64,000 bases of DNA, from contig JBBABA010000001.1 of NCBI GenBank assembly GCA_041657955.1, positions 106,419 to 170,418 on the forward strand, given 5' to 3'. This DNA is from Thermoplasmata archaeon (lineage in GTDB: Archaea > Thermoplasmatota > JASEFT01 > JBBABA01). The translations under genes and the position numbers were made by a program. Positions 8,230 to 30,316 of this stretch are shown piece by piece. The notes under the pieces were generated by a model, which saw only the letters and a program-made list of their open reading frames with translations, was not told the DNA's origin and ran no database searches. Each line of letters starts with the position of its first letter. The stretch's first letter is position 1.

Positions 8230-10026
8230 ATGAAACTCACAAAGCGAACTTGTTATGTGCTAATTATGTTTTTGATAATGCTCAACATAGTATTTCGATA
8301 TCCCACGACACCACACGAAATAGGTGCGGACTCATTTTTCATTCACAGTCTCGCAAATTCCATAACCAACAATGGAGACGCGAAATGGATACTGCATCCA
8401 TTATCGTTTTTCGGTTTATATCCGGTTTCTTATGCAAGTGCTGTTCCATTCATATTATCAGGAATGTCCCAGGTGCTCGGAGTAGAAACTGAGATATCGA
8501 TATTGATATTTTCAACGGTTTTAGGCACATTGAACTTTCTTGGGGCATACCTTCTTATGGGTGAGATAATCAACGATGACAGATTCAAGATAGTGGTAGC
8601 GTTTGTCTATTCGTTGTCCCCACTTATCCTAAAGTTTACAATATGGACTGCATCAACAAGAGGGCTTTTTATTGCTTTATTGCCGTTGTTTCTTTGGTGC
8701 ATATTAAAACTTGTAAACAAACATCATATATGGAAATACATGGGATTATCTATTTTTTTGCTGTTATTATTGACCGCTACTCACCGAATGGTGTGGTTTG
8801 TTGTGGTACCAATAATCTTCTATATTGCCGCTACCTTTATTCATAACACAGGTACAAGTAAATCTTCTTTTGGTATGTATGCATCCAAAATTTTACTTAT
8901 TCCGGTGATGATAGCTATTTTCGCGGTATTCTTCATAGCTACATATCACTTCATTTTACCGGCCGATTCAACCTTTCAGAGCATAATATCAACATTGATA
9001 GAGAACAAATATTCGGTGTTTCTCTTCTTAGTCTCTACCGGAGTTTTAATGATTTTTTTTCAATTATATGTAAAAACCCATACAATAACTATGATGACGG
9101 GAGTCGGTCTTGTAGCTTTGTTTGCAACTCTAATTTCAATGCAACTCACAGATTTAGCGGTGTTAAGAGATTTTTCGGGTGTACTCGCGTTAGATGTCCC
9201 TTTCGTTGAAGAATCCGAAGCAATTTATTATCCACAATTATTCTTCCTGACTAGTGTAATTATACTGGGGGCAAGGTATGGCATAATGATATTTTTTATG
9301 GCTATAGGTATTATTCTTCTCTCTTTTAAACAAAAAAAAATTGGTAACAATGTAATGATCCTAACATCGTTATTTTTTATAAATACAATACTATTCGTCG
9401 AATATTCCCATGATTTCTTAGCAATATTCTTGTTTATAGTGGCTGGTTATGGCGTATTCTGGTATATCGAAAATTGGAGGAGTGTTAAACGATACGCCTT
9501 CTCTATGCTTGCCATAATTTTATTACTTTCTCTTGTATTTTCTGCATATACTTTAGGTTATAGATATAGTAACATGTTCCCTACAACGGGCGATCATAAT
9601 TATATGGTAGACCCCACTTATCAAACCGGGATATTTCTAAGAACATATGCTAATGGAACATTCTATGGAAATGATTTTGAAGCATTACGAGTAGCAGCAT
9701 CTTCCGGCTTAGTGTATCTAGGCACTATTCAATACGAATTCGTCGATAAGGAAAAGATGACAATCATACCTAAGGATTTTTCGATAGCGGGTCTTCCCAA
9801 TTACATGAAAAATCCTTTTATAATAGTTAAATCAAATATTACTTCGATCGATACTAGATATGACTGCGATAGTGAAATTGCAAGAAATTTCACATCGTAT
9901 TACAGCATAGAATACCTTGTAAGTAATATAGTTGTGATGACTGACAAGTCGGTATTTGCCAATTCCGTTTATGGGAAGAGATATGAAATGTTTGCGAATG
10001 AGAGGGATATTATATTTTATCTCTGA
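8230..10026 (+). CDS. Polytopic membrane protein, putative GT-C-type glycosyltransferase/oligosaccharide polymerase (no WWDYG motif, so not a canonical AglB/STT3)
   Basis: About 12 predicted hydrophobic helices in the N-terminal 430 aa plus a soluble C-terminal domain. RBS-like GAGAGGGGGG upstream. Function assigned only by architecture. Confidence 0.4.
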   Translation: MKLTKRTCYVLIMFLIMLNIVFRYPTTPHEIGADSFFIHSLANSITNNGDAKWILHPLSFFGLYPVSYASAVPFILSGMSQVLGVETEISILIFSTVLGTLNFLGAYLLMGEIINDDRFKIVVAFVYSLSPLILKFTIWTASTRGLFIALLPLFLWCILKLVNKHHIWKYMGLSIFLLLLLTATHRMVWFVVVPIIFYIAATFIHNTGTSKSSFGMYASKILLIPVMIAIFAVFFIATYHFILPADSTFQSIISTLIENKYSVFLFLVSTGVLMIFFQLYVKTHTITMMTGVGLVALFATLISMQLTDLAVLRDFSGVLALDVPFVEESEAIYYPQLFFLTSVIILGARYGIMIFFMAIGIILLSFKQKKIGNNVMILTSLFFINTILFVEYSHDFLAIFLFIVAGYGVFWYIENWRSVKRYAFSMLAIILLLSLVFSAYTLGYRYSNMFPTTGDHNYMVDPTYQTGIFLRTYANGTFYGNDFEALRVAASSGLVYLGTIQYEFVDKEKMTIIPKDFSIAGLPNYMKNPFIIVKSNITSIDTRYDCDSEIARNFTSYYSIEYLVSNIVVMTDKSVFANSVYGKRYEMFANERDIIFYL

Positions 10027-16202: not shown

Positions 16203-18281
16203 TCAAAGTGCCAAATCTTTATTTAGTGCTAATGCCCAGAGCGTATAACCTATTTCATATGAACCTTTAAATGCGCCGAACCCGTCTTTAGATTGCACGT
16301 TACCTTTATTGTCAACACACCTATAGGAAAAGAATGCCCCTGTTGAATTATAATTGTGAACATACATATCAATTTCTGCGGAATTGTGATCTACGAGAAA
16401 TTTCCAAGCCGATATGGCATTGGGTGTATAGTCATATCTGCCACCGGATAGGATGTACAAATATCTGGAGCATATAAGAAAAAGCATCTGATGAATTTCA
16501 AAGAAGGTTTCAGTATTTTTAGTATTCCATTTCAAGCCTCCATTTGGAAGAAGCAGATTTCTGATTACCCAATCAAAATTTTTCTTCGCTGAAAGAAGGT
16601 ATTCATCAGAACCCGTTGCCTTATTTGCCAATAGAAGGGCTATATCCGCTTTCAATTGATTCTGAATCGCGGTTCTATATTCTCTTGGTTTGAATGGGAA
16701 TAGTCCATCTTTTAGTTGATGGTTAATGAATTCCATAGCATAATTGTGTATCTCTGTTTGCAGTTTACTTATGTGCTCCGTATCATCTAACAGTTTATAG
16801 ACTAACAAAAGATTTGCATACGCACGCAGAATCACAGAATGATGGTCTTCGAACATCGGAGTAAATTTAGATGAAGTAAAATTATATAATTTATTTATAT
16901 CATGAAGAATCTGCTCAGTCAGTTTAGGATCTTTGTCTTTGAAATACAGGTATCCCAATGCTAAAGATGATAAAGTTGCCCCACATTCATATTCTTCGCT
17001 AGTATGTGCATGCCCATCCGGGACACCATCTATTTTACCTTCCTGATTTATTTTTGAATGAATATATCTCAATTCATTTTTGAGATTTTCATCAAGTGAC
17101 GCATCACCTGTTACTATTGCATAGTGTGTGCCTCCTTCCTGCAATTCTACAGCGTATTTCCAGTCGTGTGGTACATAACCAGACCAATCAGTTCCAGTCC
17201 AATTCAGTTGCCTAATCCAGTTCTGGCGATCCGGGTCCCAAAACCCTTTCTGTTTGTATCCTTTTTTAATGTGCAACACTTGCTCTTCCAAATAATTATG
17301 TCGAGTGTCAGAATACATAGAATGGTAATTTGTAATATAATGTATCAATTTTTGGTCAGTAGCTTTGTACTCATCTTCGGTAGTATATATTGTTATCTTT
17401 CTTTCAAGAAGCTCTTTATACGCATCGAAGAATTCTTTTATGTTCATAATCCAGGACCTTGCATCTCCGACATACCCAAATTTAACAACTCCTCTATCGG
17501 TTAAAAAATCTGTAACAAAATTTCTAATCCAGTCCCCCCCCGGTCTCTTCTCGATCCTTGTTCGAGCCACCTTGGGATCCAGTGGCGTTACATTCATAAT
17601 TTTTATTTTTCCATTATCAATTACTTTTGCATTATATACTTTATCCATATAGACATTGATGGGAAATGGTTTAATCACATCTTCAGCTATGTGATATAAA
17701 CTTAATTTATCAAATCCTATCCCAATTCCAAGAACCTTTCCTCCGTACTCCATAATGTTGTACATGGGTGTTCCGGCTCCAAAATTTGAAGAACACTCAT
17801 TATGTCCCGCAGTAATTATTTTAGCTTTTGCGCCGAGAGCACATACCGAACTTGTAGGATGAATGCTTCTGAATACTCCGCTTCTTTTTCTAAATGTTTC
17901 TGGGATTAAACCAAGTGTTGATGGAGCTATGTTTGGGTCGAAGACTTCATTTTTTTCGAGGGTATCAACCATCCTCCCCCCCACGGGCATTGAAAATGCA
18001 GGCATTGCCAAAGTTCCATCATGCCCAATAACTTCGATTAACGCATTTATTATGGTATCTGCACCACCCTCGACATTACCAATGCTTCTAAGAGAACTCT
18101 GAACAAAAAGAATGTCCCCAGAACGAACCCCCATATCCTTTAAATCATCTGCAATCTCAGATTTCGATATTGGTCTATTTGAAAAGGTTTTATAATCCCC
18201 TCTTAGACGCTTAACAATTTTTATCACTCTTTTTTTTGCGTTTATTGGAAGTTTGTGATACATTTTTTTAATAATTGACAT
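16203..18281 (-). CDS. Fusion protein: N-terminal AAC(3)-family (aminoglycoside 3-N-acetyltransferase-like) domain plus about 400-aa C-terminal helical domain of unknown function
   Basis: N-terminal 270 aa carries the AAC(3) family hallmarks: DILFVQSSLRSIG, GTLAMPAFS, IPETFRKRSGVFRSIHPTSSV, LGIGIGFDKLSLYHIAE. C-terminal region is not recognised, possibly alpha/alpha-toroid. Confidence 0.75.
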   Translation of the reverse strand: MSIIKKMYHKLPINAKKRVIKIVKRLRGDYKTFSNRPISKSEIADDLKDMGVRSGDILFVQSSLRSIGNVEGGADTIINALIEVIGHDGTLAMPAFSMPVGGRMVDTLEKNEVFDPNIAPSTLGLIPETFRKRSGVFRSIHPTSSVCALGAKAKIITAGHNECSSNFGAGTPMYNIMEYGGKVLGIGIGFDKLSLYHIAEDVIKPFPINVYMDKVYNAKVIDNGKIKIMNVTPLDPKVARTRIEKRPGGDWIRNFVTDFLTDRGVVKFGYVGDARSWIMNIKEFFDAYKELLERKITIYTTEDEYKATDQKLIHYITNYHSMYSDTRHNYLEEQVLHIKKGYKQKGFWDPDRQNWIRQLNWTGTDWSGYVPHDWKYAVELQEGGTHYAIVTGDASLDENLKNELRYIHSKINQEGKIDGVPDGHAHTSEEYECGATLSSLALGYLYFKDKDPKLTEQILHDINKLYNFTSSKFTPMFEDHHSVILRAYANLLLVYKLLDDTEHISKLQTEIHNYAMEFINHQLKDGLFPFKPREYRTAIQNQLKADIALLLANKATGSDEYLLSAKKNFDWVIRNLLLPNGGLKWNTKNTETFFEIHQMLFLICSRYLYILSGGRYDYTPNAISAWKFLVDHNSAEIDMYVHNYNSTGAFFSYRCVDNKGNVQSKDGFGAFKGSYEIGYTLWALALNKDLAL

Positions 18282-18478: not shown

Positions 18479-19222
18479 TCACATATAATATCCACCATTC
18501 AGATTAATCACCTGACCAGTTATGTAACCCGCGTCGTCAGAAGCGAGATATGCAACCAAACTACCTACTTCTTCAGGTTTTCCAAAACGACCAAGGGGTA
18601 TTTGAGATAATATCGAGTCTTGCATTTCTTGTGGCAACCGTTTGAGCATACCTTCATAAATATATCCAAGCGCGATTGCATTGACAGTTATTCCTTTTTT
18701 TGCAACTTCTTTTGCTGTTGCTTTTGTAAAGCCGATAACTCCTGCTTTAGATGCAGCATAGTTTGCGGCACCTGCTACGCCGATTTGACCGACCACCGAC
18801 GTTATATTGATTATTCTGCCACTTTTTTGGTTACGCATGATATCGATTACTGATTTTGTGCAATTGAAAGTTCCCGTTAGATTTGTGCTTATTACTTCGT
18901 CCCATGTCTCGTCCGTCATTTTTGCAATCGTACTATCCTTGAATATCCCCGCATTGTTGACAAGTATATCGATTCTTGCAAACTCCTTTAAAGTTACGTC
19001 CACCATCTTTTTTACTTGCTCATAACTCGATACATCCGCCCCTATAACGATTGCGCGTCTGCCCATATCTTTGATAGAATTTGCAACGTTCTCTGCGGCT
19101 TGCCTATCTTGCTTATAGTTGACTACAACATCTGCCCCTTCCTTAGCCAGGGTTAAGGCGATAGTTTGGCCAATACCTCTCGAACCACCAGTCACTATAG
19201 CTACTTTATTATCTAGCTTCAT
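18479..19222 (-). CDS. Short-chain dehydrogenase/reductase (FabG-like)
   Basis: VAIVTGGSRGIG, NNAG and Y..ASKAG motifs. Start refined to the MKLDNKV ATG at 19222. Confidence 0.85.
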   Translation of the reverse strand: MKLDNKVAIVTGGSRGIGQTIALTLAKEGADVVVNYKQDRQAAENVANSIKDMGRRAIVIGADVSSYEQVKKMVDVTLKEFARIDILVNNAGIFKDSTIAKMTDETWDEVISTNLTGTFNCTKSVIDIMRNQKSGRIINITSVVGQIGVAGAANYAASKAGVIGFTKATAKEVAKKGITVNAIALGYIYEGMLKRLPQEMQDSILSQIPLGRFGKPEEVGSLVAYLASDDAGYITGQVINLNGGYYM

Positions 19223-19572
19223 TTTTCTACCACCATTATTACTCAAACTGTGTAAATCAAGGAGATATGTCACCCCTTGCGCAGTTACTGTTACGGTCAT
19301 TCTCCAATTTAAGTCCTTTGACGAATTTCTCGAACCAACAGTTATCTGCCTCGCCCGAATACTTACTCTCTGGCTTGTGTAGAAACCCTTCACAGCTAAT
19401 AAAACAACAATCAACTCATCCTACATAATACATAGAAGTTGTATGCCAAGAACTTTGTCATCAGATATCTCTTCTGTGCTCTTATTCCTTTGCTAGGAAC
19501 ATACTCGCCGAACATCCTTTTTATCACGGAGTTTCCAATACTACAAAATTCGTTTCAGAATTTTGTACGTAC

Positions 19573-19664: not shown

Positions 19665-19856
19665 GATATCGAGTATTTGCTTGTGTGTTCCGGTATGCCG
19701 TTTCTTTTAAGTATTCCTAAACCATATTGTATAACCAACGAGGCTCGCATCCCATCCACCTCAAACAGATGGGTGGGGGATTTGTCTCCAGATTAGGGTT
19801 TCTACAAAGCCGATGGGACGAAACGTTTTAATATCACACAAACACTCAAACATTGC

Positions 19857-20990
19857 ATGATAATTAAAAGAAAGGTGTGCCTTCGTTGCATCATGGATAC
19901 AACAGCTGAAGGTATCGTTTTTGACGATAAAGGTCAGTGCAACTACTGTACAAAATTCCTAAACTTGCTAAAAAAATACAAACCTTTATCAAGAGAGATG
20001 CAACAAAAAAAGCTATCTTTGTTGATTGAAAAAGTAAAAAGAGATGGTCGGAACAAACCATATGATTGTATAGTTGGTGTTAGTGGTGGCGTTGATAGTT
20101 CTTATGCGTTACACATAACAAAAAAATTCGGTTTACGACCTTTAGCAGTTCACATGGATAACGGATGGGATTCTGAACTTGCTCAGCAAAATATAGAACA
20201 TCTGGTCAAGGGTCTCGGTGTTGATTTGTATACCTATGTCATTGATTGGGATGAATACAGAAGTCTTATGCAAGCGTTTTTTGATGCTGATGTGATCGAT
20301 GTCGAATTATTGTATGATAATGCCCTGAGTGCGGTCGTCCATATGATGGCAAAAAAATACGGAATCGAGTATATACTTGCCGGGTCCAATACAATGACAG
20401 AGGGTATGAGTATACCTCCGAACTGGAATTGGTTTAAATTTGATAAAAAAAATATCTACGCCATAGCAAAACAATTTGGAGATATTAAAATCAAGTCGTT
20501 TCCCGCCATTGCGCACAGAGAAAAGCTATATTATAGCTATATTCGAAAGATAAAGTGGATTAGCTTTTTAGATTATTTTGAATACAATAAATTCGAAGCT
20601 TTGAAAATACTGCAATCTCAGTACAATTACAAACCTTACCCCTATAAACATTACGAATCAGTATTTACAAGATTTTATCAAGGTTACATTCTCCCTCAAA
20701 AATTTGGTGTTGATAAACGAAAATTACACTTATCAACCTTGATTATTTCTGGACAAATGTTGCGAGAAGAAGCCATTAAAATGATGGAAAATATCCCCTA
20801 TCCTTCTCAAAGCGATCTGGATGAAGACATAACGTATTTTCTTAAAAAAATGCGCTGGAATAAAACAGATTTAGAAGAATATCTAAGTAGGCCAGAAAAA
20901 TCGCACTTACTTTATGGAAGCGAAATGCGTTTGTTTGATTTTTTGCGCAAGATGAAAAGAAGATACAGTTGTTATAGGGTGCGGAAGTAA
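19857..20990 (+). CDS. N-acetyl sugar amidotransferase (PP-loop ATP pyrophosphatase; WbuX/WbpG/AglX family)
   Basis: N-terminal Cys-rich segment (CLRCIM...CNYC) and SGGVDSS PP-loop motif. Followed by HisH/HisF homologs, as in acetamidino-sugar systems. Confidence 0.8.
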   Translation: MIIKRKVCLRCIMDTTAEGIVFDDKGQCNYCTKFLNLLKKYKPLSREMQQKKLSLLIEKVKRDGRNKPYDCIVGVSGGVDSSYALHITKKFGLRPLAVHMDNGWDSELAQQNIEHLVKGLGVDLYTYVIDWDEYRSLMQAFFDADVIDVELLYDNALSAVVHMMAKKYGIEYILAGSNTMTEGMSIPPNWNWFKFDKKNIYAIAKQFGDIKIKSFPAIAHREKLYYSYIRKIKWISFLDYFEYNKFEALKILQSQYNYKPYPYKHYESVFTRFYQGYILPQKFGVDKRKLHLSTLIISGQMLREEAIKMMENIPYPSQSDLDEDITYFLKKMRWNKTDLEEYLSRPEKSHLLYGSEMRLFDFLRKMKRRYSCYRVRK

Positions 20991-20995
20991 AAGAA

Positions 20996-21352
20996 ATGAA
21001 GATCGGCGTTCTTGCAATTCGGGGTGCTGTCTCCGAGCACATAGCGATGGTTAAAATGACTATGAACAAGTGTGGGGTAAACGGTACTACGTGTTGTTTA
21101 AAAGAGAAGAAGGACGTAGAAAACATAGATGGACTGATTACCCCTGGCGGGGAAAGCATGATAATCTCCAAATTTATTTCAAATAAAAAAATGAGCGACA
21201 TCATACAGTTTAGCGACTCTGTGGAATCAGCAGAACTTACTCGAACTCAAAAGAATGTTCAAATAAACGTAGACGATATTTGGACAAACGATAGTAAAGA
21301 AAATTGTGTCTCTTTTATAACAGAAATTCTCAGTGAGAGGAAATCCTTATGA
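20996..21352 (+). pseudogene. Truncated PdxT/SNO-type class-I glutaminase fragment (catalytic Cys region absent)
   Basis: MKIGVLAIRGAVSEHIAMV...IDGLITPGGES matches the PdxT N-terminus (MKIGVLGLQGAVREHI...DGLILPGGEST). The remaining 50 aa are unrelated and there is no GTCAG catalytic motif. Stop overlaps the hisH-like start (ATGA). Confidence 0.55.
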
Positions 21353-21966
21353 TAGGAATCATCGACTATGGATTGGGCAATATCGGTTCAATTGTCAATA
21401 TGCTAAAAAAAATCAGGGCACCATGTATGCTTGTCTCAAACCCCGAAGAGTTGAAAGGCATAAAAAAAATAATTTTACCTGGCGTTGGCTCATTTGATGC
21501 CGGAGCTAGTAACCTGAAAGCTACTTCATTATGGGACGCTATTAAGGTAAAAGTTCTTGATGAACAAGTCCCTTTACTTGGTATTTGCTTGGGTATGCAG
21601 TTACTTTTTAATAAAAGCGAGGAGGGCAAAGAGGACGGCCTAGGGTTAGTGAGTGGAGAAATTAAACGGTTTGATTTTAGTCAGATGGAACAGAAACTAA
21701 AAATTCCTCACATGGGATGGAATGTTGTTACACCGACAAAAACCGACCCCCTCTTTTTCCATATGCCTCATAAAGAGATGCGGTTTTATTTTACCCACTC
21801 GTATCATGCAGTGTGTGCCAAACCAGAGAATATCCTAGCTGTAACCTCATATGGGTACGAATTTACATGTGTTGTACGAAATGGTAATATCTTTGGTGTA
21901 CAATTCCATCCAGAAAAAAGCCATAAGTTTGGTATGCAGTTACTCAAAAATTTTGCGGAGTTATAA
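21349..21966 (+). CDS. Imidazole-glycerol-phosphate-synthase HisH-like glutamine amidotransferase subunit (WbuY/AglY-like)
   Basis: IGIIDYGLGNIGS, GICLGMQLL, HMGWN and GVQFHPEKS motifs. Confidence 0.85.
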   Translation: MIGIIDYGLGNIGSIVNMLKKIRAPCMLVSNPEELKGIKKIILPGVGSFDAGASNLKATSLWDAIKVKVLDEQVPLLGICLGMQLLFNKSEEGKEDGLGLVSGEIKRFDFSQMEQKLKIPHMGWNVVTPTKTDPLFFHMPHKEMRFYFTHSYHAVCAKPENILAVTSYGYEFTCVVRNGNIFGVQFHPEKSHKFGMQLLKNFAEL

Positions 21967-21967
21967 T

Positions 21968-22729
21968 ATGCTGCGAACAAGGGTTATACCGTTTTTGTTA
22001 TTAAGGAACAGTGGTCTTTACAAAGGGATAAATTTCAAAGATCATAAATATGTCGGCGATCCAATCAACACGGTGAAGATATTTAACGAGAAAGAGGTCG
22101 ACGAACTTGCATTGCTTGATATTACGACTTCATTGGAAAACAAAGAACCAAATTACTCCCTCATAAAAGATATTGTGAGTGAGGCGTTTATGCCTATCTC
22201 TTATGGTGGAGGGGTAAAAACCCTTGAACAAGCACGAAAACTTTTTAATCTCGGTATAGAAAAGATTATAGTCAATACGTCCTTTGCACACAATCCAGGT
22301 ATTATAACTGAGATCGCCTCTGTTTTTGGCTCTCAAAGTGTTGTTGTTTGCATAGATGTAAAAAAATCGTTATCGGGGAATTATGCATCATACATTATGT
22401 CTGGAACGCAAAAAACTAAGGAATCCCCTGTTGAATTAGTCAAAAAAGCACAGGAGATTGGTGCGGGAGAAATTGTTATCAACTCGATTGATCGCGACGG
22501 CACACTGTCAGGTTACGACCTAAAGATTATTAATGAGATAACGCAATCAGTTTCTGTACCGGTTATTGTAGTAGGTGGGGCATCAAATCTTGAAGATTTT
22601 AAAAAAGCGGTCGAGTCGGGTGCGAGTGCGGTTGGAGCGGGCGCCATGTTTGTTTTCAACGGACCCCATAGGGCAGTTCTTATAACTTATCCAAGCTATG
22701 ATGTACTTAAGAATATATTGGGAGAATAA
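21968..22729 (+). CDS. HisF-like cyclase subunit (WbuZ/AglZ-like)
   Basis: RVIPFLLL, GGGV and IVNT motifs of the HisA/HisF TIM barrel. Start refined to the ATG just after the hisH-like stop. Confidence 0.8.
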   Translation: MLRTRVIPFLLLRNSGLYKGINFKDHKYVGDPINTVKIFNEKEVDELALLDITTSLENKEPNYSLIKDIVSEAFMPISYGGGVKTLEQARKLFNLGIEKIIVNTSFAHNPGIITEIASVFGSQSVVVCIDVKKSLSGNYASYIMSGTQKTKESPVELVKKAQEIGAGEIVINSIDRDGTLSGYDLKIINEITQSVSVPVIVVGGASNLEDFKKAVESGASAVGAGAMFVFNGPHRAVLITYPSYDVLKNILGE

Positions 22730-22733
22730 AGAT

Positions 22734-22901
22734 ATGCAGCATCAAACGTGTACACGATGTATCATGGATACATCGGATCCAGACATCACCTTTGACGAGA
22801 ATGGAGTGTGCAATCATTACATCACTACGATTGAAAAATTAAGAGCACCGCCATGTTCATTATCCAAAGAATCTAAGAAACAATTATTAGGTGACAGATA
22901 A
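22734..22901 (+). pseudogene. Duplicated N-terminal fragment of a WbuX-like amidotransferase (55-aa Cys-rich mini-ORF)
   Basis: MQHQTCTRCIMDTSDPDITFDENGVCNHY... parallels the N-terminus of the 19857 gene (CLRCIMDTTAEGIVFDDKGQCNYC). Good RBS (GGAGAATAAAGAT-ATG). Terminates after 55 codons, overlapping the GT4 start. Confidence 0.5.
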
Positions 22902-24183: not shown

Positions 24184-24312
24184 ATGCTTAGTAACGGAGG
24201 GTGCCCCTACCATTGTAGTTTTTGCTGTAGTCATGTTGTTTGGCAAAGAAGAACAAGATTTCGTTCTCCAGAGAATGCCATTAGCATTAGCAGTAATTAC
24301 GCAAGGGGGTGA
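24184..24312 (+). pseudogene. Remnant of a cobalamin-binding radical SAM enzyme gene (43 codons retaining the CX3CX2C motif)
   Basis: MLSNGGCPYHCSFCCSHVVWQRRTRFRSPENAI: GCPYxCxFC plus RFRSPEN is the hallmark of class-B (B12-binding) radical SAM enzymes. No B12-binding domain upstream; downstream frames are broken. Confidence 0.5.
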
Positions 24313-24486
24313 CATATCTCCTTGGTTTACACAGCCCCTATGATGATTTTTCATACCACCGTGATAATATACTGCGGGGCGGTATACAACCGTCTATGGG
24401 ACTAAAATTTTAGTTATTATCCTTATTGGTAGGGATACTAATCGATTGGAAATCTAAATATACCGTATATCGAATTAAGGCTGATT

Positions 24487-28429: not shown

Positions 28430-30316
28430 TTACACTTTTCTTAGAGACTCTATTATCTCAATTATGCCTTTATCTCCCATATCTATAGTTCTTTTATACA
28501 ATTCTGGATCATCATTTAGAAATTTCTCGATGATTTTTACAGCATCTTTGTCATTGGAAAACATTTGTAGCATATTCCCAAATTGTTCAAGTGCCGTCTT
28601 TCGAATCTTGGTTGCTTTGTGATATAACGATATGGTCGGCACGCCTGCAACAACAGATTCATAGAATCCTGTAGAGGGGCAATCACAAATTACCCTATCA
28701 ACTGTGTACAGATGTTCAACAAATGGATTCGTGGCTATCTCAATATTTTCAAAGTTTTTATCTTTTATAAAATCTGGGATGGGGTTATACGATACATCGG
28801 CAGATGGTATGCCTTTCCAAACAAATACATACTCCTTTTTAGTTGAGAAATACTCTATGAGTGCTTTTTGAAATTTATAGTACCAGACATCAGGATATTC
28901 TGCACCGCCAATCGGGCGATGATCCCCTAAAAAGAAAAGGGGTAGGTATATTATTCTCTCTCTCGTTTTACTACCGCTATGTTTATTTCTTCTATCATCC
29001 CTCAGATTTTTTATTTTCACCACATTTAACAATCTATGTGGGCTGTAAAAAAGTTTAGTTGGAAGATTGTATAGTTTACACAGACATTCAAAATATTCTT
29101 TGTGCTCTTTGTTGGAGCATATATAATTTCTATAGGGGACCAGTTCTGTAGCCACCCATCCCTTCGCATCAAAAGCACCATCGCCGTGGAAATAACTGAC
29201 GCTTACAGTTTTATCATAGTAGTTTGCGGCGGCAATGGCCGCGAAATGAGCCGACAACCACTCATATGGTGTAATAACAAAATGAATATTTTCTTTTTCA
29301 TAAAATTCAATGAAAAATTTGAAATAGGCAAAAATCTCTGGACACACCTTCGAAACAAAATATTTTAGGTTTGGTAAAATTATTTGCGAAACTTCCATTT
29401 GACATTTTTCATCAATCCAGGAAATCAACTCATCTTTCTCTAAAACATCGGCTGCGTTTTTCCAATCATTACTATGTTCGTTTTTATTTCCAGTATGAAT
29501 ATCCAAATACGTTTTTGCACCAAACCTAGAGCATTTCAGTATTCGATCGCCATCATATGATAGGGAATAAAGGTTATGGCCCTTTTTTAAAACACTTTTT
29601 ACTATTTCGAATAAATTATAATTCGAGATCGGTACCAACAACAATATATTTAAACAATCTTTATTTTTCCCGGTTGGGGGGTACTCCTTTCCGTAATTTA
29701 AGAAGAAATATATGTTCCTTGCAAATTGATATTTACCCAACATTCTTTTTATATGCATCTTTAAATATTTTATATTATAACTATATTTTTTACTTATCCT
29801 AGTGTGTTTACCTATCGCTGGTATGTGAATTGACTCTAATGATGTATTCCTTTCGTTACAGAGGATCGGAATAATTTGGGAGTATAAACTTCTACTATCA
29901 TCCCACAGTCTGAAATCAAGGGTTCTCTTACGTGGTGGGTGTGAAACAAACACTATATTTGATGGTTTTATTTTATCGAACAACATCCTTAATGTAAGAC
30001 ATCTGAGAATCAAAGGGCCTAATACTGCGAATAGAAACTGAAAATACATTATTCCTAATTTCAGATCGAATTTCTTTAGTTCGGGTACATGGTTTTGAAG
30101 GAATGCATCTAATTTACTCAACCACTCGAGAATCGATTTAAGATACTCATCTTCAGTAGAGGCTAATTGAACCTCATCATAATAGTCTTCAATAATCGAG
30201 TATTTTATCCCCACCCTATCCAATTGATAGCAAACTTCTGGGGTCAGGGCGACGATAATACTGCCCTTGTCAAATTTCACAGTCGGGTCATACGCTTCGA
30301 GCAGATACGTTTTCAT
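28430..30316 (-). CDS. Large uncharacterised protein with GT-B-like C-terminal domain (candidate nonulosonic-acid or glycerophospho-transferase)
   Basis: 628 aa and very AT-rich. C-terminal DRVICDCPSTGFYESVVAGVPTI resembles the GT-B nucleotide-binding loop. No firm family assignment possible by eye. Confidence 0.3.
   Translation of the reverse strand: MKTYLLEAYDPTVKFDKGSIIVALTPEVCYQLDRVGIKYSIIEDYYDEVQLASTEDEYLKSILEWLSKLDAFLQNHVPELKKFDLKLGIMYFQFLFAVLGPLILRCLTLRMLFDKIKPSNIVFVSHPPRKRTLDFRLWDDSRSLYSQIIPILCNERNTSLESIHIPAIGKHTRISKKYSYNIKYLKMHIKRMLGKYQFARNIYFFLNYGKEYPPTGKNKDCLNILLLVPISNYNLFEIVKSVLKKGHNLYSLSYDGDRILKCSRFGAKTYLDIHTGNKNEHSNDWKNAADVLEKDELISWIDEKCQMEVSQIILPNLKYFVSKVCPEIFAYFKFFIEFYEKENIHFVITPYEWLSAHFAAIAAANYYDKTVSVSYFHGDGAFDAKGWVATELVPYRNYICSNKEHKEYFECLCKLYNLPTKLFYSPHRLLNVVKIKNLRDDRRNKHSGSKTRERIIYLPLFFLGDHRPIGGAEYPDVWYYKFQKALIEYFSTKKEYVFVWKGIPSADVSYNPIPDFIKDKNFENIEIATNPFVEHLYTVDRVICDCPSTGFYESVVAGVPTISLYHKATKIRKTALEQFGNMLQMFSNDKDAVKIIEKFLNDDPELYKRTIDMGDKGIIEIIESLRKV

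Follow-up and report, generated by a model that had tools for sequence, protein, structure and literature searches.

Leftover gene pieces in an archaeal acetamidino-sugar module: two small ORFs as probable scars of cassette rearrangement

A large glycan-biosynthesis cluster in a Thermoplasmata archaeon MAG, containing GT4 transferases, a Wzx-like flippase and NDP-sugar enzymes, houses an acetamidino-sugar module at positions 19857-22729 of the window (the whole 64,000-nucleotide stretch of DNA analysed here). The locus raises the question of what its two small ORFs are, one of 118 codons (ORF118) lying between the amidotransferase gene and hisH, and the other of 55 codons lying directly after hisF. 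An earlier reading made from the letters alone (the sequence-only reading) took both as remnants, the first of a glutaminase partner that had been displaced by HisH and the second of a duplication of the neighbouring amidotransferase gene, unless the second was an expressed zinc-ribbon mini-protein. Every ORF described in that reading is present at its coordinates, and the fragment matches (ORF118 to PdxT and the 55-codon ORF to WbuX) are far above chance. It is argued below that both ORFs are indeed gene fragments, but not of the sources then proposed, and that they are probably scars of cassette rearrangement, being neither functional partners of the trio nor an old enzyme partner and a new mini-protein. 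The features of the locus are as follows.

19857-20990, + strand: WbuX-type amidotransferase, intact, N-terminal subtype A (MDTTAEGI..CNYC); TIGR03573, 3.1e-83
20996-21352, + strand: ORF118, 118 codons, between wbuX and hisH, with a PdxT-derived head and an X477-derived tail
20991-21205, + strand: head of ORF118, copied ectopically from the pdxT of the same genome; blastn, 78% identity over 214 nt
21206-21352, + strand: tail of ORF118, consisting of about 48 codons left from the 3' end of an X477-family gene, with a stop that overlaps the hisH start (ATGA); profile E=2.4e-05
21349-21966, + strand: HisH-type glutaminase subunit (WbuY/AglY-like), intact; TIGR01855, 4.3e-68; Pfam GATase, 4e-23
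21968-22729, + strand: AglZ/HisF2/WbuZ-type cyclase-like subunit, intact; NF038364, 1.9e-107; His_biosynth, 2.1e-59
22734-22901, + strand: the 55-codon ORF, a stub in which about 51 homologous codons from the 5' end of a second wbuX are left; subtype B (MDTSDPDI..CNHC), with CNHY in this copy; TIGR03573
22901-24100, + strand: GT4 glycosyltransferase, given for context, its gene fused onto the end of the stub; Glyco_trans_1_4, 1.2e-30

The trio is real and intact, as had been proposed. The upstream WbuX scores 280 bits against TIGR03573 (cutoff 203.2), with residues 6-342 covering profile positions 2-342 of 344, and its translation carries both the 4-Cys N-terminal ribbon (CLRC...CNYC) and the PP-loop VSGGVDSS, with weak NAD_synthase and PP-loop Pfam matches at residues 57-164. 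HisH scores 229 bits against TIGR01855 (cutoff 105.4) and keeps the nucleophile Cys (GICLGMQ) and the FHPEKS motif. HisF scores 358.3 bits against the AglZ/HisF2 model NF038364 (cutoff 310) and, at 288.9 bits, lies just under the cutoff of 299.7 of the WbuZ model TIGR03572. The closest known acetamidino-forming modules are WbuX/WbuY/WbuZ of E. coli O145 and AglX/AglY/AglZ of Methanococcus maripaludis, and hisH2-hisF2-wbpG of Pseudomonas aeruginosa is a related system. The present trio resembles WbuXYZ/AglXYZ in consisting of the same three protein families within a glycan cluster, with scores above the curated cutoffs except for TIGR03572, and differs from them in its hybrid order, with an intact wbuX upstream and a truncated second wbuX downstream. 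We infer from family membership, by which the product is assigned, that the trio is a predicted working acetamidino-sugar module. Acetamidino sugars are known to be included in archaeal N-glycans (PMC11407970). The closest relatives are bacterial, with at most 68% identity (61-68% for the best relatives of WbuX), although the host is a Thermoplasmata MAG.

We consider first the 55-codon ORF. Against TIGR03573 it aligns to positions 2-30 of 344 only (1e-08, 35 bits, cutoff 203), far from full length; it has no PP-loop, and no further wbuX remnant was found downstream of it. That it repeats the N-terminus of the amidotransferase holds true in so far as the two are homologous, with 35-38% amino-acid identity (tblastn 2e-05 and 3e-08) and 71% nucleotide identity over 59 nt, but it is a distant relative rather than a close duplicate, since in the full alignment only 16 of 51 amino acids (31%) are identical. 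With the WbuX subtypes A and B defined from the N-terminal alignment, the stub shows 69-77% identity over 26-36 amino acids to type-B WbuX N-termini. That the stub arose from the adjacent wbuX by tandem duplication was rejected on the identity of 31%, together with the fact that the stub is nearer to the family consensus than the intact gene is. The stub is then not a duplicated piece of its neighbour, being of a different WbuX subtype and located at the place where a wbuX usually starts after hisF. It begins 4 nt past the hisF stop; in the related loci, hisF is followed by wbuX (order hisH-hisF-wbuX) in 95 of 160, while the WbuXYZ order with wbuX upstream is found in 12 of 160. The median hisF-to-wbuX distance in the relatives is 31 nt as projected from the ends of the tblastn alignments, so that the real gaps are shorter than this.

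It could be supposed that the 55-codon ORF encodes an expressed zinc-ribbon mini-protein in its own right, e.g., a regulator or a WbuX accessory. Its start context, inherited from wbuX, is good, three of the four Cys are kept, and in sister contigs it is called by the gene finders. However, its ribbon (CTRC...CNHY) has Tyr in place of the fourth ligand Cys, whereas Cys stands at this position in 19 of 19 aligned homologues. Moreover, its sole non-self database matches are N-termini of full-length WbuX genes: candidate mini-protein matches were discarded because P0006 and P0007 are the stub itself and the contigs of P0008 and P0009 show frameshifted full-length WbuX, and the third non-self match, P0010, is a WbuX N-terminus as judged by its sequence only. 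The sister strains are 100% identical across the stub block, giving no conservation independent of identical copies. The mini-protein is accordingly very unlikely.

We now turn to the head of ORF118. Its derivation from PdxT and the absence of the catalytic region, as noted before, are borne out by the profile alignments: residues 2-71 match positions 1-64 of 184 of TIGR03800 (PdxT; 4.6e-13) and residues 5-72 match positions 1-63 of 188 of Pfam SNO (PF01174; 3.2e-11). Like PdxT (Pdx2/SNO, the glutaminase subunit of PLP synthase), with whose residues 1-70 its own residues 1-70 align, ORF118 keeps the PGGES loop in this region; unlike PdxT, it has only one third of the domain and no Cys-His-Glu triad, the alignment to P0005 and P0004 stopping at residue 70 with GTCAG and HPE lying beyond, and its score against TIGR03800 (49.5 bits) is below the cutoff of 105.55, short of a full PdxT domain. 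The closest relative of the head is the genome's own pdxT (71% amino-acid and 78% nucleotide identity), and the copy spans -5 to +209, i.e., it starts 5 nt before the ATG and ends with codon 70. That genuine pdxT (locus L010) is intact and lies after arcTGT; the 458.5-kb contig carries both it and the copy, about 250 kb apart. Judged by synonymous divergence, the head is also nearer to the own pdxT (dS 0.55-0.80) than to an outgroup pdxT (dS 1.2-2.0).

These results bear directly on the proposal that ORF118 is a decayed PdxT-type glutaminase, once the partner of the amidotransferase and later displaced by HisH. The proposal accounts for the match of the head to PdxT, and PdxT and HisH are both class-I glutaminases. 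However, in the 160 related loci no PdxT-like gene stands beside WbuX or HisH; the nearest relative of the head is the host's housekeeping pdxT, including the 5 nt upstream; no frameshifted remainder of pdxT is present; the tail comes from another gene; and ORF118 is restricted to one species-level clade, where it occurs in three near-identical clusters. The displaced partner is thus largely refuted already, and we give it almost no chance of being correct. It is noted that the apparent 78% homologue P0003 on contig L009 was set aside as an independent orthologue, because over the first 1565 nt it matches the genuine TGT-pdxT locus without a difference (100% identity). Contig L009 is chimeric, whether through faulty assembly or through actual recombination; only its tail and hisH constitute a third allele, and it is unusable for the head comparison.

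The tail was described before as unrelated. This is correct with respect to PdxT but not otherwise, because the tail is a C-terminal remnant of an X477 gene, which normally abuts hisH. The X477 family consists of uncharacterised proteins of about 470 amino acids (range about 455-500) encoded upstream of hisH in acetamidino cassettes; from weak similarity to the models of polysialyltransferase, CDP-glycerol glycerophosphotransferase and Epimerase_2 (GT-B-like), they are putative GT-B-like transferases. The tail gives a tblastn match directly upstream of hisH in locus L018 (E=0.023-0.029), ranks first of 639 segments with a 5-sequence C-terminal HMM (E=0.0016), aligns in the C-terminal register by hhalign (E=0.034), and with the 73-sequence C-terminal X477 profile is again first of 639 six-frame segments (E=2.4e-05, 19.9 bits, with E=0.029 for the runner-up). 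Residues of about 63-113 of ORF118 correspond to the last approximately 50 profile positions, including the motif W-x-x-[ND]-[SW]-x-x-N-x-x-x-F. The position is the same as well: hisH is directly preceded by X477 genes in L018, L066, L023, L031, L103 and L134, a junction like that of ORF118 is seen in L018, L066 and L031, and in L066 the overlap with hisH is also ATGA. As about 420 N-terminal residues of the family are missing, ORF118 holds only an X477 fragment and is not a family member as a protein. Nucleotide-level searches and searches in the other frames gave no source for the tail.

These comparisons demonstrate, at the level of sequence, the origins of the fragments, the usual order in the relatives and the lack of PdxT-type genes there, and the trio is, as judged in this way, flanked and interrupted by leftover pieces from three other genes (pdxT, an X477 gene and a second wbuX). 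We propose the following history. The contiguous block 21206-22898 would derive from a cassette with the common order [X477 gene - hisH - hisF - wbuX], of which the last approximately 48 X477 codons, the whole hisH and hisF and the first approximately 51 codons of the type-B wbuX would have been retained, with the original stop/start junctions intact. In place of the lost 5' part of the X477 gene, 214 nt copied from the beginning of the organism's pdxT would have been joined in frame to the tail, yielding the chimeric ORF118, and the different type-A wbuX, now upstream, would supply the amidotransferase function. In a metagenome search for closer hisH relatives the best had 59% identity and no intermediate state was found, and the sliding-window identity, including a search for a recombination point in hisF, did not assign HisH and HisF to type A or B.

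Several points count against scars. The homology of the tail rests on about 45 residues; the X477 genes are accompanied by a type-A wbuX in 5 of 6 loci, whereas the local stub is of type B; the pdxT copy, starting almost at the start codon and fused in frame, is more orderly than is usual for random capture; and ORF118 is open without indels in all the alleles seen.

The last point leads to the possibility that ORF118, deposited as a hypothetical protein, is a young functional chimeric small protein, in which a catalytically dead N-terminal half of a GATase joined to a C-terminal helix of a transferase acts as an adaptor or regulator touching WbuX, HisH or HisF2. Besides its intactness, the retained PGGES and the operon-style spacing (a start 5 nt past the end of wbuX and 4 nt shared with hisH) fit with this, as does the uncorrected dN/dS of 0.27-0.39, with a simple Nei-Gojobori estimate of 0.30 (binomial P=0.009). 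However, when neutral evolution of two ORF118 alleles was simulated with the observed 80% transition bias, the 10 synonymous changes among 23 substitutions compared with a neutral mean of 6.4 (P=0.067), while WbuX, HisH and HisF gave P=0.0003-0.005 in the same test. The claim of purifying selection on ORF118 was therefore dropped, and ORF118 is compatible with neutral evolution, a weak constraint at the protein level being possible given the dN/dS of 0.30. Substitutions at the three codon positions number 4/9/10, the second position changing about as frequently as the third, and the three-way dN/dS of the tail is about 0.7. A 70-residue slice of the flavodoxin-like GATase fold is unlikely to fold alone, and AlphaFold2 on ORF118 (5-row alignment) gave no confident fold, with a mean pLDDT of 41.9. 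Together with the restriction to one clade, these data make a functional ORF118 protein improbable. We give equally little credence to the wider proposal that ORF118 was newly born from the N-terminal third of PdxT and the C-terminal helix of the transferase, with its product or its translation tuning the assembly or expression of HisH/HisF2/WbuX and with L009 representing ongoing pdxT-ORF118 recombination.

Returning to the scar explanation, each of the two stubs has retained a start codon with a purine-rich motif before it and ends in a stop that overlaps the next ATG, so that they are probably still translated in passing, and this passing translation may help the translational coupling of hisH and the GT4 gene, while the protein products of the stubs most likely have no function of their own. 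A variant of the same explanation is that the stubs are kept open by selection as leader ORFs coupling translation to the hisH and GT4 starts, with the frame selected rather than the sequence. This would be consistent with the overlaps ATGA (ORF118/hisH) and TAATG (stub/GT4), the former being ancestral as judged from X477/hisH in L066, with the in-frame fusion of pdxT from its start codon, and with near-neutral substitutions that have yet produced no stops. However, with the observed divergence a frame free of stops is no more than chance would give (P(no stop)=0.58), and hisH and the GT4 gene each have their own purine-rich motif upstream. We thus regard selected leader ORFs as somewhat doubtful.

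Gene remnants and mosaic cassettes occur in bacterial O-antigen and capsule loci. The present locus is like these in having truncated genes at cassette junctions and strain-level mosaicism, the block 19816-22589 differing by 3-6% between strains and being followed by about 2.4 kb without a SNP; it is unlike them in that one scar is a chimera with a piece of an unlinked housekeeping gene. A radical-SAM N-terminus at 24184-24312 is a possible third stub, which would be in keeping with a cluster where remnants abound. In the window, scans for Rfam families and tRNAs gave no matches.

Nothing at the locus points to a new mechanism, and the finding is mainly of use to annotators, who would best treat both the 118-aa 'SNO-domain' protein and the 55-aa ORF as gene remnants rather than as a glutaminase and a zinc-ribbon protein. 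The locus also illustrates the rebuilding of archaeal surface-glycan clusters, with bacterial-like cassettes, permuted order, strain mosaicism and a housekeeping-gene patch at a junction. Should ORF118 prove to be expressed and required, it would offer a small case of gene birth from fragments that can be dated.

The open reading frames described in the sequence-only reading lie where it had placed them, with family matches as described, and its assignment of the trio to the acetamidino modules of the WbuXYZ/AglXYZ type is upheld, with wbuX (19857-20990) and the following two genes being intact, matched by family models and forming a regular member of that type.

21349-21966, plus strand: HisH-type glutaminase (TIGR01855, 4.3e-68)
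21968-22729, plus strand: AglZ/HisF2-type protein (NF038364, 1.9e-107, exceeding the cutoff)

Archaeal N-glycans with acetamidino sugars have been described (PMC11407970), and bacterial clusters in which these three families are annotated together are also on record (PMC11340318). The trio is surrounded by a glycan-biosynthesis cluster with GT4 transferases, NDP-sugar epimerases/dehydratases, nucleotidyltransferases, a Wzx-like flippase and a UDP-GlcNAc 2-epimerase. Because the best relatives of the WbuX, HisH and HisF of this MAG are bacterial (Spirochaetota, Deltaproteobacteria and others), with 52-68% identity, it is suggested that the module was likely acquired by inter-domain transfer. 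A Methanomassiliicoccaceae WbuX has just 42% identity to that of the window.

Between wbuX and hisH lies the 118-codon ORF118 (20996-21352). Its exact product appears in the databases as a hypothetical protein from a 'Thermoplasmata archaeon' MAG, and the ORF is carried by a 458.5-kb metagenomic contig as well as by contigs of further samples. Its N-terminal ~70 residues do resemble PdxT, with matches to Pfam SNO (3.2e-11) and to the PdxT model TIGR03800 (4.6e-13) that span no more than residues 2-72 (profile positions 1-64) and score far under the family cutoff, and ORF118 is not recovered as a member of PdxT. The genuine full-length pdxT (product P0005, 198 aa) is present on the same contig, ~250 kb off, directly 3' of an archaeal tRNA-guanine transglycosylase gene. 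Window 20991-21204 matches this gene with 78% nucleotide identity (71% in amino acids) from 5 nt 5' of the ATG to codon 70, where the similarity ends abruptly, and a search after the head found no frameshifted continuation of pdxT. The extent of this match, together with dS values of the head that are lower against its own pdxT (0.55-0.80) than against another Thermoplasmata pdxT (1.2-2.0), argues that the head is a partial, ectopically placed copy of the housekeeping pdxT of this lineage.

The tail (residues 71-118) had been described as unrelated, which holds only with respect to PdxT. It has a weak tblastn match (E=0.023) in L018, one of the related loci, directly 5' of hisH; the sequence matched there is the C-terminal end of a protein of 477 aa, whose homologues (X477) also adjoin hisH in five other loci (L066, L023, L031, L103, L134). 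The homology was examined by three tests of growing depth. With a profile of five X477 C-termini, the ORF118 frame ranks first of 639 six-frame window segments (E=0.0016, next 0.46); by hhalign, ORF118 columns 74-112 fall on X477 columns 440-480 of 484 (E=0.034); and a profile of 73 full-length members matches ORF118 with E=2.4e-05 and 19.9 bits (next best 0.029) over residues ~63-113, including the motif W-x-x-[ND]-[SW]-x-x-N-x-x-x-F. Moreover, in L066 the X477 stop and the hisH start overlap in ATGA, and the overlap of ORF118 with hisH is identical. Based on these matches and the shared junction, ORF118 is read as an in-frame chimera, with pdxT codons 1-70 followed by the 3'-terminal ~48 codons of a gene of the X477 family. 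Elsewhere in the window, a 628-aa gene at 28430-30316 (minus strand), with no Pfam match, is a distant X477 relative (full-length family HMM, E=7.9e-05).

It was proposed in the sequence-only reading that ORF118 is the relic of an earlier glutaminase partner displaced by HisH. We mapped 160 related loci, 80 in genomes found with WbuX and 80 on metagenome contigs found with HisH, and none contains a PdxT-type gene, the only pdxT matches being weak cross-matches on HisH itself. ORF118 itself occurs in only three database clusters, all of one species-level clade, and the proposal is not supported. In the two relatives in which ORFs of the wbuX-hisH gap were inspected by sequence, these are methyltransferase-like (L097) and glycosyltransferase-like (L141), neither with a pdxT match.

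The 55-codon ORF (22734-22901) does resemble the amidotransferase N-terminus, as had been noticed, matching the WbuX model over positions 2-30 (1e-08), but is not recovered as a WbuX member; its identity to the N-terminus of the 19857 protein is 35-38%, with 71% nucleotide identity over 59 nt. That it duplicates its neighbour is not supported: just 16/51 residues are identical, and of the two WbuX N-terminal signatures, type A (MDTTA.GI.FD..G.CNYC) is that of the intact window WbuX and its best relatives, whereas the stub is of type B (MDTSDPDI.FDENGVCNHC), with 69-77% identity to type-B N-termini over 26-36 aa. Note also that wbuX directly follows hisF in 95 of the 160 loci and directly precedes hisH in only 12, and that the stub starts 4 nt past the hisF stop, the usual wbuX start site. 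The signature, the position and the low identity to the neighbour together argue that the stub is left over from the 5' end of a second wbuX distinct from the neighbour; a search 3' of it found no more of that gene, and its stop shares bases with the GT4 start codon (ATG). The suggestion of an expressed zinc-ribbon mini-protein fares no better, as the fourth ribbon Cys is replaced by Tyr and no stand-alone mini-protein is present among the database matches, two of which lie on contigs showing frameshifted full-length WbuX genes, with the third (P0010, on an 816-nt contig) assessed by sequence only.

The arrangement in the sister strain (L005-L008) is identical to that of the window. Relative to L005, the block 19816-22589 has diverged by 3-6%, with 80% of the substitutions being transitions, and is followed by ~2.4 kb without a SNP; within the block, 124 SNPs lie in genes from 19857 on (127 if counted from 19816). 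Compared with L003 and L004 (19816-25600), the differences lie mostly within wbuX, with 5 SNPs in hisF for L003. This uneven distribution indicates recombination between strains within the module. Between the window and the sister strain, the simple dN/dS of ORF118 is 0.30, with 0.16-0.21 for its neighbours, and by codon position the changes number 4/9/10 in ORF118 and 6/5/24 in HisH. Of the 23 ORF118 changes, 10 are observed to be synonymous, with 6.4 expected from a neutral simulation with this transition bias (P=0.067), and WbuX, HisH and HisF give P=0.0003-0.005. The frame would stay open by chance at this divergence with P=0.58, dN/dS of the tail across three alleles is about 0.7, and the AlphaFold2 model has a mean pLDDT of 41.9. 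Since the substitutions are compatible with neutrality, the open frame is at chance level and the pLDDT is low, there is no significant evidence of a functional ORF118 protein, while it may be under weak constraint.

A '78% homologue' of ORF118 (P0003) comes from the 2010-nt contig L009 (JGI 3300028032), whose counterpart in the window is 20991-21649. Over nt 1-1565 it agrees with the genuine arcTGT-pdxT locus at every position (1565/1565), and what follows represents a third allele of the tail of ORF118 together with hisH (425/445 identical to the window). The join is at the end of the segment common to pdxT and ORF118, where the two have a 26-nt exact match. Either a chimera made in assembly or a true recombinant between pdxT and ORF118 would account for this contig.

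Other features were observed in the window. A 42-aa ORF at 24184-24312 (plus strand; GGCPYHCSFCCSH...RFRSPENA), with a radical-SAM CxxxCxxC N-terminal motif and a match to Pfam Radical_SAM under the cutoff (E=0.0019), lies in the gap separating the GT4 gene from the transferase after it and is probably a third gene stub. An inverted repeat (19248-19293 and 24288-24334; 29 nt at 97%, 47 nt at ~89%) flanks the block from wbuX to GT4, each arm being 5' of an outward-facing gene (SDR on the minus strand, GT-like on the plus strand), and may represent a duplicated junction or a regulatory element shared by the two. At the place matching the SDR/FabG-like gene (18479-19414, minus strand), no such gene is called in the sister contigs (SRR290546xx); in L005 an 82-aa ORF alone is called at 8488-8736, and the similarity to the window begins only at 19816. 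The 692-aa protein of 16203-18281 (minus strand) has an aminoglycoside 3-N-acetyltransferase-like domain (PF02522, 6.4e-49, residues 60-293) and a ~400-aa C-terminal extension without Pfam match.

Most likely, the starting cassette had the common form X477-hisH-hisF-wbuX, most of both flanking genes were lost, the upstream gap was patched in frame by a copy of the pdxT 5' end, and the amidotransferase is supplied by a type-A wbuX placed upstream. It is noted that X477 occurs with type-A wbuX in 5 of 6 loci, whereas the stub is of type B, and that no clear A/B signal is present in HisH or HisF. Both stubs keep their inherited start contexts, and their stops overlap the next start codon, from which we infer that they are probably translated in passing, which may aid translational coupling. 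Polysaccharide loci commonly contain gene remnants where cassettes meet, and the sole unusual feature here is that one scar includes part of an unlinked housekeeping gene.
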